Source: a virus | DNA: 64,000 bases | Direction: 5' to 3' (one strand) | IMG/VR virus record: IMGVR_UViG_3300023110_000006 | Part shown: in pieces, positions 58,204-64,000 of the stretch | Layout: each line of letters opens with the position of its first letter | How positions within the stretch are numbered: position 1 is the first letter of the stretch | Program-made: the position numbers and the translations under genes | Notes under the pieces: generated by a model | The model's database searches: none | What the model was told of the DNA's origin: nothing | Seen by the model: the letters and a program-made list of their open reading frames with translations, nothing else

Positions 58204-58268
58204 TATGCCCTCCAGCGTTTGCGTTTGTTTATACTACTACTATATGATCAGTTGCTGTGTAAGTCAAC

Positions 58269-58583
58269 CTAAAATGGTTGACCACACTCTATCTTTTCTG
58301 CGGCTTTAAAGCCCACTGCCGCACACTTGTAGAGTGCACCATCCGCTTCAAAGTAATCACCCATTGCACTTGATCTGTGTCCGTACTTCTCTACAGGAAC
58401 TACAACCTCTACGTGTGGGTTCTTGTCTTGTACTCCTTCGGGGTGGCTCCAGCTGTCCATAATGTTCTGTGTCCAACGGTATGCATACTCGCAGGCTTCA
58501 GTGTGTACTGCGTGTGGCGCATCAACTGTTGCGATGTGTACCGGTTTGTCTTCGAATGCTGTGTGGAAAACTTTAACTTTCAT
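58269..58583 (-). CDS. Early hypothetical protein
   Basis: AYRWTQN...SW, RSS.MGD; own promoter and GAGGGC RBS. Confidence 0.7.
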   Translation of the reverse strand: MKVKVFHTAFEDKPVHIATVDAPHAVHTEACEYAYRWTQNIMDSWSHPEGVQDKNPHVEVVVPVEKYGHRSSAMGDYFEADGALYKCAAVGFKAAEKIECGQPF

Positions 58584-58668
58584 AGTGCCCTCTTTCTGTT
58601 TATACTCTTACTATAAGGTCAAAGGTCTTGTAGGTCAACCCCTAATTTACCAAAAGTTTACGTAAGAT

Positions 58669-58793
58669 GAACCCGGGGAGAGCGTAGTGAGGGCGAGTGC
58701 TCAATCCCCGGGTTCTATACCGTAGAGCGTGAGGGCTAGTAGCTCTTCGGTATGTACAGTGATCAGGTTGAGGGCTACCTTCTCATCACTGTA
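58669..58793 (-). ncRNA. Candidate triple-hairpin RNA with GCCCUCA in every loop (3' UTR of the AAA gene)
   Basis: Three consecutive stems (58669-58715, 58716-58754, 58755-58793), each with TGAGGGC (+) / GCCCTCA (-) in the loop; strand uncertain. Confidence 0.65.
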
Positions 58794-59782
58794 TTCTCTG
58801 CCATTGCTTCCCAGTTGCTGGGAAATGCTTTGGCTAAGTCAGCTACCTTGAGCACTGTACGTAAGCTCAGTTCTCTCAGTCGCTTCTTATTAATATCGAT
58901 GAAGTCTATAATGTCCTCATGTACTTCATCTGAGAATGCATATTCACTAAGCATACCGTCACCCACGATCTGCTTGATACGTAGCATCTTCTCTCGCTCT
59001 GTGTCGATAGTAAGATCTACATAGTGACAACGTGATTCAAGTGCTTCTAAATGGTCTCTCATCTTCTTAGATTTAACGTTGTCGAACTTGATGTTGGTAA
59101 TAAAGATCGCTGAACCTTTGAACTCGAAGCTGTCCGGCACGCCTTCATTACGCAACTTGAATGAATCTGTGTTCCAATGTATACGTCTAGTCTTCTTTGA
59201 ATCCAGTGCGGCTTTTAGGATGTTAAGGCTAAGCTCGTCCTGTAGTACTGAGTCACAGTCGTCAAACACAATTACATTGTCTTTGTCTGCGTACTTGAAC
59301 AGTTTACAGTAGAGGCCGATAGCACTCATCGCACCCTTGACCACTTCATACTTTTTAAAGCTACTGTCGCCTGCAATGTCTGCGAGTAGTTCGTGCTTGC
59401 CCAGCACTTTCTCTACGCCGAAACTTTTACCAACACCTGGAGGTCCTGATACGATCATTGCACGTACATCGCCTTTCTTACATGCTCGTGTCATGTCTTC
59501 TAGCATAGCGAAACGTTCACGCAAACGATCAACAGTCTCTTCATCTGTTTCTTCTCGCTGTGTGATCTTTGAGTTGCCTGCGCTTTCGTAACAGCTTGCA
59601 TCTGTTACTCTGATCTTGATGTTACGATCTGGAAAGCCTGCAATAGCCTTACCATCGACAGTTACGTAACCGCCTGCCGCTCCGATCTTGAAGTCTTCTA
59701 CTAGTGGAAATACCATACCGGCTAGATCAACGTCTTTGCCTCTAATTTTGTAAGTACCCTCTTTGATTCTAATGTTTGTCAT
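58775..59782 (-). CDS. AAA+-type P-loop ATPase, early
   Basis: GPPGVGKS Walker A, IVFDDCD Walker B, IFITN, ALESR. Confidence 0.85.
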   Translation of the reverse strand: MTNIRIKEGTYKIRGKDVDLAGMVFPLVEDFKIGAAGGYVTVDGKAIAGFPDRNIKIRVTDASCYESAGNSKITQREETDEETVDRLRERFAMLEDMTRACKKGDVRAMIVSGPPGVGKSFGVEKVLGKHELLADIAGDSSFKKYEVVKGAMSAIGLYCKLFKYADKDNVIVFDDCDSVLQDELSLNILKAALDSKKTRRIHWNTDSFKLRNEGVPDSFEFKGSAIFITNIKFDNVKSKKMRDHLEALESRCHYVDLTIDTEREKMLRIKQIVGDGMLSEYAFSDEVHEDIIDFIDINKKRLRELSLRTVLKVADLAKAFPSNWEAMAENTVMRR

Positions 59783-59822
59783 ATTGCCCTCGCGTTTTGT
59801 TTATATATTATACTGTAGCATC

Positions 59823-59951
59823 TTAGTTAACTAATGTCAACATCGAACCTATCCAAATTAGGCATACGCCCGCAAATGCTATTGCCATTTGAATAAGACC
59901 TGTGTAAAGACCTACTCCTACTACTGTGATTGCCCCAATTGCTTTTAACAT
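59823..59951 (-). CDS. 42-aa membrane protein (below the ORF-track cutoff)
   Basis: MLKAIGAITVVGVGLYTGLIQMAIAFAGVCLIWIGSMLTLVN; own promoter (GGTTGAC..TATAGT) and GAGGC RBS. Confidence 0.6.
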   Translation of the reverse strand: MLKAIGAITVVGVGLYTGLIQMAIAFAGVCLIWIGSMLTLVN

Positions 59952-60032
59952 ACTCGCCTCTCTGTGTGTTATTATGTTTTTACTATAACACCAAACGGTG
60001 CAATGGTCAACCCCTTTTGGTTACTTATTTGT

Positions 60033-60116
60033 TGGTGCCCGCACCCAGACTCGAACTGGGACGCACATAGCGAGGGATTTTAAGTCCCTTGTGTCTACCT
60101 ATTCCACCATACGGGC
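60033..60116 (-). tRNA. tRNA-Leu (UAA)
   Basis: GCCCGTA acceptor stem, AGGGA-CTTAAAA-TCCCT anticodon arm, long variable arm, GTTCGAG T loop, encoded CCA. Confidence 0.92.
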
Positions 60117-60118
60117 TT

Positions 60119-60195
60119 TGGCCTCTGCGGAAGGATTCGAACCCTCGACCTACGGATTAGAAGTCCGTTGCTCTATCCAGCTGAGCTACGCAGAG
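60119..60195 (-). tRNA. tRNA-Arg (UCU)
   Basis: CTCTGCG acceptor, TAGCTCAGCTGGATAGAGC D arm, ACGGA-CTTCTAA-TCCGT, GGTTCGAATCC, encoded CCA. Confidence 0.95.
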
Positions 60196-60296
60196 ATCTC
60201 TAAAACTGTTCCTATCTGATTGTAATAAAAGAATGGTTGGGACCCCACCTACTTCCCATACCTGGGGGAGCCTACGCTCCCCGCCCGAGGTGTGTC

Positions 60297-62417: not shown

Positions 62418-62765
62418 TTACACCTCCATGCTTGCATAGCCATCGTCTTGCATGCCTTGCTCAGTAAAAGTTACGTCCATACCTAATGCTGTACTAATAG
62501 CACGTTCAAATCCACTGTCCGTGTAAATGTCCCATGTAGCATCATGCACAACGTTCACCATAACACTGTCGCTCATATCGTCTTCATACACAGTATGTCT
62601 TACCTGTATGCTGTCCACACGCACAGTATCCTTTCCTGTGTAATCCCATATGCTGTCCATAGCAAGTTTTACAGTTCCTTGCACATCATACATTGTATTA
62701 GTTACAGTTTCCTGCAGTTCCGCGTCACGCTCATTTTCAGTGTATAGTTTTTTAAGTGTAAGCAT
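62418..62765 (-). CDS. Early acidic hypothetical protein (proline-free)
   Basis: IYTDSGFE...FTEQGMQ motif; GAGGGC RBS; lies in the GA/GG-free template block. Confidence 0.7.
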   Translation of the reverse strand: MLTLKKLYTENERDAELQETVTNTMYDVQGTVKLAMDSIWDYTGKDTVRVDSIQVRHTVYEDDMSDSVMVNVVHDATWDIYTDSGFERAISTALGMDVTFTEQGMQDDGYASMEV

Positions 62766-62832
62766 ATTGCCCTCGCTTTGCTTGTTTGTTAATGTTAACT
62801 ATTTGTAGCACATACAAAAGCATAATGCAAGA

Positions 62833-62910
62833 GAAAAGTTTTGTTTAAAAACAATGACTTAGCAAAAAAATTTATTTTATAAGTCATTGAAAACAAAGGA
62901 AACTTTTTTC
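62833..62910. repeat. Imperfect inverted repeat with IHF-like cores between divergent promoters
   Basis: AAAAGTTT..CAATGACTTA / TAAGTCATTG..AAACTTTT. Confidence 0.55.
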
Positions 62911-62920
62911 ACAAATGGGG

Positions 62921-63028
62921 TTGACAAATGACCCTTAGCTTGCTATATTATAATTGAGGATGGGGGCAGTAGGTCCGAGGGAACCGAAGAGCCGCAAACG
63001 GGAGGGCACGGAGCTCTGACCATTTTTT
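62921..63028 (+). ncRNA. Candidate ~70-nt small RNA with its own sigma70 promoter
   Basis: TTGACA-17 nt-TATATT, then a G-rich structured segment containing GAGGGC and ending in TTTTTT; no credible ORF. Confidence 0.45.
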
Positions 63029-63040
63029 CAAACCAGAACC

Positions 63041-63075
63041 AAAAAGAAAGACGACCCCTAGGGCCGCCTCTCTCT
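63041..63075 (-). terminator. Rho-independent terminator
   Basis: Minus strand AGAGAGGCGGCCC-TAG-GGGTCGTCTTTCT-TTTT; G-U pairs fit the minus strand. Confidence 0.7.
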
Positions 63076-63089
63076 GAGGGCAAGTCTAT

Positions 63090-63293
63090 CTAGTACTCGT
63101 CTGAGTAAACCTCTCCAAAGTCTTCCCACTCCTGCTCCCAGGTGGGTTGCCCGTCGTTGTCGTCGAAACTCTCGTCGAACTCTACACGCACCCCGCCACC
63201 ATAGGCTAGGTTGTATTCTGTCTGCATGGCCTCGGCCTCGTTCCGATTATCGAAACTGTCTACGACCTCGCCCTTCCAAATTAACTTCCACAT
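63090..63293 (-). CDS. Early hypothetical protein
   Basis: EVVDSFD...EA..M..EY.LAYG and DGQPTWEQEW.DF; own promoter, GAGGTG RBS. Confidence 0.65.
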   Translation of the reverse strand: MWKLIWKGEVVDSFDNRNEAEAMQTEYNLAYGGGVRVEFDESFDDNDGQPTWEQEWEDFGEVYSDEY

Positions 63294-63345
63294 TTTTGCA
63301 CCTCTTTCTAACTATACCTTACTATAACACGGCCCCACAGCAATG

Positions 63346-63669
63346 TCAACCCCTTTTGGTATAAGTCCTCGGGTCGACTGAAATAGCGTTGGAGATCTGG
63401 TACTCCCGATAGTCTTTGCTATCGTCAGCCAGCTCGGCCATCCACTCGTCATAGGTGGAATATGAGCTTGGGAACTCCTTGAACGAAATGTTGTTCTCCA
63501 TCCCAATAGCCGCTACAAATGCCACAGCATCCTGTAGCCGCTCTACCCCACTTACAATGTAGGTATCGCCTCCCTTGAATTTCCAATAAGCGTTCCCGCT
63601 CTTGAACCGGCCGTCCTCACAGTGAGCGCCATAGTTTTCCATGTGTTGTGTGTGAACTACGAATTGCAT
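63346..63669 (-). CDS. Early hypothetical protein
   Basis: TQ..ENYGAH...YWKFKGG.TY; GAGGGC RBS before ATG 63669. Confidence 0.7.
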   Translation of the reverse strand: MQFVVHTQHMENYGAHCEDGRFKSGNAYWKFKGGDTYIVSGVERLQDAVAFVAAIGMENNISFKEFPSSYSTYDEWMAELADDSKDYREYQISNAISVDPRTYTKRG

Positions 63670-64000
63670 AATTTTTGCCCTCTCTAATGCGTTATTGTCT
63701 CTACAGTATAAGACCAACACAAGGAGAAGTCAACCCCTAATTTACCAAAAAACGGTTTTTTGAACGACACGGAAAGAACACGACGAGTGGGGTGATGATC
63801 CAAACTCAAGTGTACACCAAACTGTATAGTGTGACCAAAACCTGAATTTTCTCAATCTTTTCAAAGGGTTAGCAGGCTCTCTTAGTGTAGTAGCATAGTA
63901 GAGCTAACCGCAAGTCCAAAACCCCTAGTAGCCGCACTATACACTATAGCCGCAAGCCCCACCAAAAGGCCCCTCCAAACCCCTCTTAGGCCCAGATCTG

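Follow-up and report, generated by a model that had tools for sequence, protein, structure and literature searches.

The post-transcriptional end of the early programme in large lytic phages is well understood only for T4, where it is carried out by the proteins RegB and RegA. Specifically, T4 inactivates early mRNAs by RegB cleavage at GGAG Shine-Dalgarno (SD) sites and by RegA binding, and the specificity of RegB derives from bases located 3′ of the SD core, with GGAGRAYARAA as consensus (PMC3014915). A further arrangement found in T4-like phages is the PeSL cassette, which, in the accessible parts of the reports, is characterized by a stem-loop, a sigma-70 early promoter, an SD and a start codon placed before small variable early genes (PMC4122927, PMC2839356). 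PeSLs are described there as recombination substrates thought to mediate modular shuffling, and those same parts of the text mention neither a private SD extension nor a complementarity between loops and SDs (PMC4122927).

Bacteria employ C-rich RNA words directed against ribosome-binding sites. The cuckoo/CcsR sRNAs of Alphaproteobacteria consist of 2-4 adjacent hairpins with variable stems, all displaying the same C-rich, anti-SD-like loop word, CCUCCUCCC (PMC4615179). In Staphylococcus aureus icaR (PMC3868564) and in Vibrio cholerae OppZ and CarZ (PMC7398697), a C-rich word or seed of the 3′UTR pairs with a translation-initiation region and represses it, thereby generating a negative feedback on the same mRNA or operon. 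Regulatory sRNAs derived from 3′UTRs are typically set free by RNase E, accumulate, and pair in an Hfq-dependent way.

The locus analysed here belongs to an uncultured giant marine phage of the wider T4-like/PA5oct group, and was studied in a stretch of 64,000 nucleotides (IMG/VR virus record IMGVR_UViG_3300023110_000006), hereafter the window. Its minus strand harbours, at 58.2-63.7 kb, a cluster of cassettes in which 11 of 13 genes carry the hexamer GAGGGC 3-7 nt 5′ of their ATG. The 11 positions reported for it in a preliminary description of this DNA all hold. In the direction of transcription, these minus-strand tags are found at 63677..63682 (7 nt before the ATG at 63669, 107-aa ORF), 62769..62774 (3 nt before ATG 62765, 115 aa), 62348..62353 (6 nt before ATG 62341, 90 aa), 61999..62004 (4 nt before ATG 61994, 67 aa), 61708..61713 (6 nt before ATG 61701, 64 aa), 61447..61452 (3 nt before ATG 61443, 166 aa, phrog_1987), 60869..60874 (3 nt before ATG 60865, 62 aa), 60607..60612 (4 nt before ATG 60602, 101 aa), 59786..59791 (3 nt before ATG 59782, a 335-aa AAA-type ATPase, phrog_1250), 58587..58592 (3 nt before ATG 58583, 104 aa) and 58207..58212 (3 nt before ATG 58203, 116 aa), so that the ORFs behind them range from 62 to 335 aa. 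The other two genes bear the variants already noticed in that description, namely GAGGTGC at 63298..63304 (-), before the ATG at 63293 of a 67-aa ORF, and GAGGC at 59957..59961 (-), before the ATG at 59951 of a 42-aa ORF.

Twelve of the 13 genes are preceded by their own strong sigma-70-type promoter, TTGAC(A/T/C)-17-TA(T/C)A(G/T/C)T, while the promoter of the 115-aa ORF is weaker. The strong promoters, one per cassette, span 58239..63733 (-), their -35 elements starting at 63733, 63349, 62404, 62056, 61762, 61502, 60923, 60668, 60010, 59840, 58638 and 58267, and the cluster is closed by an intrinsic terminator at 57795..57824 (-), whose loop lacks the anti-tag. The genes are ORFans, 12 of 13 encoding proteins of unassigned function, and a tblastn search of the 166-aa protein against cultured phages returned nothing above 36% identity. 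The label "early" is a presumptive one, taken from promoter type and from these small ORFan genes. With its 12 strong promoters, 17-nt spacer, hairpins upstream of several promoters, short leaders and ORFan genes, the cluster has the PeSL design.

The tag is specific for this class of genes. Counting both strands, the window contains 19 copies of GAGGGC, against 7.5 +/- 2.5 expected, a number reached by none of 100 shuffles. More to the point, the hexamer precedes 11 of 13 genes of the cluster and none of the 67 other ORF starts in the window (Fisher exact test, p = 7e-12), which supports the class-specific tag suggested in the preliminary description and leaves no room for an equal frequency of the motif before late genes. 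The 67 other starts, with AGGAG-type sites or short leaders, display AGGAG, GGAG, AAGGA or GGGAG, or else an ATAAATA box near the ATG. The early leaders are A/C-rich and weakly structured (MFE 0 to -6 kcal/mol), in line with the unstructured tract noticed earlier 5′ of the tag.

Part of the tag is a regular SD. GAGG pairs with CCUC of the 16S tail, thus reaching the 4 nt or more expected of an SD, and the duplexes of the 13 leaders with the canonical tail range from -6.3 to -10 kcal/mol. Between tag and ATG there are 2-9 nt, in most cases 3-7, which places the GAGG core mostly 5-9 nt from the AUG. The bases that follow GAGG, G, C and A, lie opposite A, C and U in the canonical tail, and at best the last of them pairs; in other words, pairing with rRNA does not account for all the conserved bases of the tag, of which GGGCA is the most conserved part. 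In line with the earlier remark that the terminal GC adds nothing to anti-SD pairing, this extension is unpaired with the canonical tail and yet conserved like the promoter hexamers.

Comparison with related IMG/VR contigs indicates that the tag is under selection. It is present in 237 of 382 unique cassettes, whereas GGAGGG occurs in only 43, and the base that follows it is A in 78%. In 30 orthologous leaders of the ATPase gene, conservation is limited to the -35, the -10, gaGGGCa and the ATG. The tag keeps its distance from the start codon and not from the promoter, since the standard deviation of the tag-to-ATG spacer is 1.6 nt and that of the -10-to-tag distance 4.8 nt. In a 262-kb relative (G001), 12 of 17 copies in SD position fall in one 9-kb cluster, which also holds a loop array.

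The reverse complement of the tag, GCCCUC, appears on the same transcript strand after two genes of the cluster, the early ATPase gene and a 67-aa gene, that is, in only 2 of the 13 intergenic regions. Array A (58655..58790, minus strand) consists of three tandem hairpins in the ATPase 3′UTR (MFE -50.7 kcal/mol, z = -5.2), with GCCCUC at 58770-58775, overlapping the stop codon, 58731-58736 and 58689-58694. In the predicted fold, loops 2 and 3 display the motif, and the position of the array is conserved in relatives. Array A extends from the ATPase stop codon to 17 nt before the next -35 and lacks a promoter of its own. Cuckoo RNAs are free-standing sRNA genes. Array B (62960..63100, minus strand), after the 67-aa gene, has a copy at 63076-63081, single-stranded and just 5′ of a terminator (63075-63043), and a second one at 63002-63007 in a hairpin loop; its fold is no better than shuffles (z = -1.1). 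Duplexes of the window loops with translation-initiation regions reach -16.8 kcal/mol for early genes versus -9.2 kcal/mol for 45 others (p = 2e-7). An Rfam scan of the window, at gathering thresholds and at E <= 1, finds only two tRNAs, so that the arrays fall in none of the curated families.

Relatives allow the arrays to be defined more precisely. In 62 unique arrays with 168 motifs, the probability of being unpaired is 0.84 for the loop motif and 0.36 elsewhere; the MFE structure leaves 145 of the 168 motifs unpaired. Each array comprises 2-5 motifs in adjacent hairpins whose stems vary while the loop word stays identical, within an 8-nt loop of consensus GUGCCCUC; flanking stems of at least 8 bp accompany 29% of the motifs versus 6% of permuted-word controls. 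The architecture recalls cuckoo/CcsR, with 2-5 hairpins here, but the word is (G)UGCCCUC or UUCGCUCC and lies in phage 3′UTRs, whereas cuckoo RNAs are bacterial, and the targets bear a matching private extension by which an entire temporal class of genes is marked. A U.G pair closes 39 of 56 hairpins, and the last hairpin often bears a T-run, which indicates folding in the gene-strand RNA. As for covariation, the count is partly circular, because the hairpins were selected on their inner four pairs; in the outer five pairs, the only unbiased sample, about half of the cells are paired (46-70% per pair), versus 29-39% over the whole helix when partners are slid. Relatives also carry the array at the mRNA 3′ end, its last hairpin with a T-run sharing the terminator, as in the OppZ/CarZ type. 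Finally, 52% of the loop copies of GCCCUC are preceded by U and, given the A that follows most tags, the complementarity between tag and loop reaches 7 bp.

A sister clade uses a second pair of words, with tag GGAGCGAA, which extends the same 4-nt core differently, and 3′UTR loops UUCGCUCC. Non-coding GCCCTC and CGCTCC number 179 and 30 in class A loci; for class B loci the counts are 15 and 61. The loop word alone predicts the type and the strand of the tag: loci chosen only by the loop B word contain 435 same-strand GGAGCG tags versus 10 GAGGGC, and those chosen only by the loop A word contain 89 GAGGGC versus 5 GGAGCG. As the loci are not phylogenetically independent, this co-variation amounts to about two events. 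A third candidate class, with tag GGAGCA and loops TGCTCC (L146, L123, L104), was dropped for want of convincing 3′UTR hairpins.

On the strength of these sequence features, we consider it fairly probable that the early-class tag is read by the anti-tag loops of the 3′UTRs, with the effect of throttling or shutting off early translation. GAGGGC(A) would then be a composite element, made of the GAGG core and of a private GCA extension, unpaired with 16S rRNA, that would lengthen the complementarity to the loops to 7, at most 8, bp. The hairpins, being at the ends of early mRNAs and beside the terminator or forming it, likely outlive the mRNA bodies; their loops may pair, in vivo and in trans, with the unstructured tag that each early mRNA carries and compete with the 30S subunit. 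The outcome would be an early class throttled or switched off, repression and protection both being possible, and middle and late mRNAs, in which AGGAG is followed by A/U, would be spared. Among the readers put forward in the preliminary description, an RNA finds a concrete candidate in the complementary loops; the repressor and the nuclease gained no support.

Some observations count against this mechanism: the arrays share a transcript with their presumed targets, the window has fewer loops than tags (5 vs 11-13), the invariant pairing is only 6 bp, short for an unassisted trans interaction, and array B folds no better than shuffles. The c4 antisense RNA of phages P1 and P7 is likewise co-transcribed with its target and blocks a ribosome-binding site via short complementary segments; its target is one operon, icd-ant, and its role lies in immunity rather than in the control of a temporal class. 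The proposed class-wide post-transcriptional shut-off at the SD region resembles that operated by T4 RegB and RegA, except that the T4 readers are proteins (PMC3014915) and the candidate reader here is an RNA loop. In contrast to icaR and OppZ/CarZ, which act on their own mRNA or operon, the system described here has one word common to about a dozen separate transcripts; moreover, RNase III acts on the icaR duplex, and the 7-8 bp predicted here are too short for this enzyme.

The same pairing might instead be local only, the ATPase 3′UTR folding on its own tag or the loops silencing the tag of the next gene on read-through. A tag (59786) and array A do coexist on the ATPase mRNA, the tag of the next cassette follows each array at 60-110 nt, and icaR (PMC3868564) and OppZ/CarZ (PMC7398697) provide precedents. 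We nevertheless regard this as unlikely, because at least 11 other genes keep the extension with no loops of their own, loops being confined to the two intergenic regions described above, and because a single local target would be served by 2-5 loops per array. Rather improbable, too, is a protein reader, either a repressor or a RegA/RegB-like SD endoribonuclease, with the loops acting as decoys or protectors or being unrelated. The affiliation of the phage with the wider T4-like/PA5oct group and the T4 precedent speak for it, and a new RNA-binding protein could be among the early proteins, as nearly all of them are of unassigned function. However, it would explain neither the exact complement in loops nor the joint change of tag and loop. 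The RegB target consensus (PMC3014915) is not matched by GAGGGC. A search of five related contigs, 237-358 kb long and one of them 100% complete, gave no match to RegB (PF10715) or RegA (PF01818), with no positive control to lean on, since the controls gave no match either.

The PeSL-type design of the cassettes (PMC4122927) raises the possibility that GAGGGC is no regulatory tag at all, but a local SD flavour homogenised by recombining promoter-leader cassettes. We think this doubtful: the leader between -10 and tag is homogenised neither in sequence nor in length, some bases of the conserved island take no part in pairing with 16S rRNA, and the complementary loops and the two matched word pairs would be left unexplained. 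It is more doubtful still that both words represent one asymmetric DNA site, bound in either orientation by a phage or host protein. GAGGGC and GCCCTC are indeed the same double-stranded site, and a co-evolving protein could also give clade-specific words, but orientation is strict, all 5′UTR copies having one sense and all 3′UTR copies the other; in addition, the tag is anchored to the ATG and not to the promoter, and its complement is displayed in loops, on covarying stems and with U.G closing pairs that only the RNA of the gene strand can form. Lastly, an unusual host 16S tail pairing with the whole GAGGGC, in favour of which nothing was found, is scarcely credible, because the structural and replication genes of the phage use AGGAG, AGGAGG or AAGGAG and the sister clade places a different extension on the same core; the anti-SD of the host is most likely ordinary, judging from the canonical SDs of the phage's own non-early genes, with no GCCCUC as had been considered at the outset.

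No cultured relative carries the system, which also counts against the proposed reading of tags by loops. The nearest cultured phage is PA5oct (TerL 55% aa identity). Either word turns up 1-2 times in its 45-kb early repeat region, and its two abundant ncRNAs have no such loops; PA5oct lacks the system and was rejected as a model. A megablast of the window against cultured phages gave only tRNA matches, and in the literature searched on the motif and on phage anti-SD RNAs we found no description of the scheme.

We are evenly divided as to whether a sequence-addressed switch of translation is at work in a large group of giant T4-like phages, aquatic and uncultured. In such a switch, a lineage-specific 3-4-nt extension of the SD core would mark the early class as a whole, multi-loop RNAs of early 3′UTRs would read this mark and time the shut-off of the class, and the tag-loop pairs (GAGGGCA/UGCCCUC and GGAGCGAA/UUCGCUCC) would be orthogonal. 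If true, this would represent an RNA-only solution to the ending of the early programme, with one short address per early ribosome-binding site and a multi-loop reader RNA, operating in phages abundant in marine and fresh waters, and it would account for the conserved bases at early ribosome sites beyond rRNA pairing. The two naturally orthogonal pairs would also be usable as translational control parts. In IMG/VR, the loop 15-mer of the sister clade matches at least 120 stretches and the window-type 16-mer 35, chance matches being possible in both; as the 15-mer count is about the chance level for a database of this size, only the tag content of the loci was used, and most of the loci fetched by a loop word carry the matching tag.

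Thirteen genes in tandem on the minus strand of the window (58203-63669) carry the GAGGGC tag or a variant of it ahead of their start codon. Twelve of the 13 each have their own sigma-70 promoter, close to consensus and with a spacer of 17 nt, and a terminator at 57824-57795 (minus) closes the cluster; promoter type and gene content suggest that these genes are early. The 11 minus-strand copies of GAGGGC listed in the preliminary description are all borne out, each lying 3-7 nt ahead of an ATG that opens a reading frame of 62-335 aa, and the two remaining genes have the variants GAGGC and GAGGTGC, as had been stated. 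GAGGGC is missing ahead of all 67 other ORF starts in the window (Fisher p = 7e-12), and the hexamer occurs 19 times on both strands, against 7.5 copies expected. The observation is thus real and far beyond chance, and the earlier reading of the motif as a class-specific tag is supported. Early leaders are A/C-rich and nearly unstructured. In agreement with the ordinary or leaderless starts claimed for the other classes, the non-early genes have AGGAG, AGGAGG, AAGGAG or GGGAG, or else an ATAAATA box near the ATG. This box, of the T4 late-promoter type, lies no more than about 15 nt from the start codon in many non-early genes (for example at the plus-strand starts 6599, 13702, 43914, 53959 and 56150), leaving little or no space for a Shine-Dalgarno (SD) site, and such genes appear to be late genes that have a short leader or none.

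Many relatives of the window are present in IMG/VR, and their 382 unique promoter-leader cassettes, with the consensus AGAGGGCAA and a median leader of 33 nt from the -10 element, contain GAGGGC in 237 cases, the remainder being mostly one-base variants. In a 262-kb relative (G001), 12 of the 17 SD-positioned copies fall within one 9-kb stretch of raised G+C. Among 30 distinct orthologous leaders of the early ATPase gene, conservation is confined to the -35, the -10, gaGGGCa and the ATG, sequence and length being otherwise free. The tag is anchored to the start codon and not to the promoter, since the tag-to-start spacer has a standard deviation of 1.6 nt versus 4.8 nt for the promoter-to-tag distance. 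The CCUC of the canonical 16S tail can pair with GAGG, but the G and C that follow cannot pair; sequence comparison indicates that these extra bases of the tag are under selection. The -35 is also conserved beyond the usual hexamer, being usually preceded by AGGGG or GG (minus strand; 63733, 63349, 61762, 61502, 60923, 60010 and 58638), with the consensus GGTTGACA in relatives.

A candidate partner of the tag is encoded on the same strand. GCCCTC, its reverse complement, occurs there five times, always in non-coding RNA: behind the ATPase gene at 58770 (overlapping the stop codon), 58731 and 58689, and behind a 67-aa gene at 63076 and 63002. The first array folds into three hairpins (-50.7 kcal/mol, z = -5.2), of which the second and third display the loop word; the second array folds no better than shuffled sequences, and its GCCCUC is nonetheless unpaired. 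In relatives, the ATPase stop codon is followed by two to five hairpins that present the word in their loops; the stems of these hairpins share no sequence kinship, and usually the last one carries a T-run. In 62 unique arrays, which together contain 168 motifs, the loop word has a probability of being unpaired of 0.84 versus 0.36 for the rest, and it is unpaired in the minimum free energy structure in 145 motifs; long stems flank it five times as often as they flank permuted words. In the commonest hairpin the 8-nt loop is GUGCCCUC and its closing pair is U.G, a pair that only gene-strand RNA can form. As the base after the tag is A in 78% of cassettes and the base before the loop word is U in 52% of loops, the tag-loop match usually extends to 7 nt. 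No Rfam family matches the arrays.

A near-consensus promoter opposing the early genes (62921-62949, plus; TTGACA, 17 nt, TATATT, with TG) would drive a transcript across the complement of the second array; because this RNA would carry GAGGGC at 63002 and 63076, it could be a decoy for the loops. No such opposing promoter was seen next to the arrays in the few relatives mapped. In addition, two neighbouring early promoters (62404-62376 and 62056-62028, minus) contain between -35 and -10 an inverted repeat of 10-13 bp, ACACTGTAGC ... GCTACAGTGT. This repeat scores as a terminator of the upstream gene, which would make terminator and promoter overlap; alternatively, it is an operator.

A second clade, located among the relatives retrieved via a 166-aa early protein, has the same cassette design with another pair of words. 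Its early ribosome sites read GGAGCGAA, and its 3'UTR hairpin loops, for example the three tandem hairpins of locus L157, read (A)UUCGCUCC, the exact complement of the tag GGAGCGAA across 8 nt. Non-coding GCCCTC and CGCTCC stand at 179:30 in first-tag loci and at 15:61 in second-tag loci. When IMG/VR loci were separately ascertained by the loop word alone, the 120 loci with the second word had, among the matches listed, 435 GGAGCG on the same strand against 27 on the opposite one, together with 10 GAGGGC, and at least two matching tags were present in 83 of them; the 31 loci with the first word had 89 GAGGGC versus 5 GGAGCG. Loop type, on these counts, predicts both the type and the strand of the tag. 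Since the loci are related to one another, however, this co-variation counts as roughly two evolutionary events rather than as hundreds. The sister system (loci L096-L102, L105, L128-L136, L154, L157 and L177-L296), with tag GGAGCGAA and loop AUUCGCUCC, the latter often inside the 15-mer CCGATTCGCTCCCGG, appears to be widespread in IMG/VR.

In the simplest reading, the tag would combine an SD core with an address, and the loops would read the address. The likeliest reader of the tag is an RNA encoded at a distance of a few hundred bases. For the window's loops, the predicted duplexes have a mean energy of -16.8 kcal/mol with the 13 early initiation regions, versus -9.2 kcal/mol with 45 others of the phage (p = 2e-7), and the early sites are predicted to pair with the canonical 16S tail at -6 to -10 kcal/mol, all energies excluding the cost of opening structure. 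Because they are highly structured and 3'-terminal on early mRNAs, the arrays should outlast the mRNA bodies. Array RNAs would accumulate and, acting in trans, gradually keep the 30S subunit off every early mRNA, while mRNAs of the later classes would be spared. The main alternative as to the effect is that the loops protect the leaders rather than repress them. A protein reader of the RegB/RegA kind would be the classical solution, as used by T4 on its early mRNAs (PMC3014915), but a search run without a positive control found no RegB/RegA homologue in five related contigs, and such a protein leaves the complementary loops unexplained. It is possible that pairing is purely local and serves the ATPase gene, as in icaR (PMC3868564) or OppZ (PMC7398697), but this would not account for a dozen other transcripts bearing the same extension. 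The cassettes fit the PeSL design (PMC4122927), but their homogenisation by recombination, as the source of tag uniformity, is contradicted by the unconserved ATPase leaders. A DNA-level site is contradicted by strict orientation, anchoring to the ATG and display of the complement in loops. Finally, a host anti-SD containing GCCCUC, which the preliminary description had raised, is contradicted by the sites of the phage's own late genes and by a second tag built on the same core.

Judged from sequence, the tag-loop system would be a form of anti-SD RNA control of which the literature searched gave no description. The closest likeness in anatomy is to the cuckoo/CcsR sRNAs (PMC4615179), in which two to four hairpins differ in their stems and share a single C-rich word in the loop; the closest in logic is to T4 RegB/RegA, which shut off early genes as a class at their SD sites. 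The system belongs to neither, as loop word, 3'UTR location, phage origin and the private extension of the targets differ.

The source of the window is an uncultured giant myovirus with recognisable tail sheath, tail tube, large terminase, DnaB-type helicase and DNA polymerase. It has no nucleotide-level relative among cultured phages, the nearest being Pseudomonas phage PA5oct (55% terminase amino-acid identity), from which the tag-loop system is absent. PA5oct produces two abundant early-region ncRNAs, at 2-5% of phage reads (PMC7318152); these (8263-8498 and 21951-22401 of its genome) are not evidently related to the loop arrays. Of the 13 early proteins, 11 were scanned; one is an AAA-type ATPase, another matched a PHROG whose function is unknown, and for the others no family match was obtained. 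Two tRNA genes, tRNA-Leu(TAA) and tRNA-Arg(TCT), lie between two cassettes inside the cluster (60033-60195, minus). G+C content reaches 43-50% in the last 10 kb (54000-64000) versus 32-40% in the bulk of the window, and the same rise coincides with the tag-bearing cluster at 50-80 kb of G001; it could reflect host-like codon usage of the first-expressed genes or a different origin. Ahead of the first cassette, non-coding DNA at 63900-64000 (minus) is rich in G, with GGGG-T(2-4)-GG units recurring in it; this stretch may mark the edge of the early region or be a genome-end feature.
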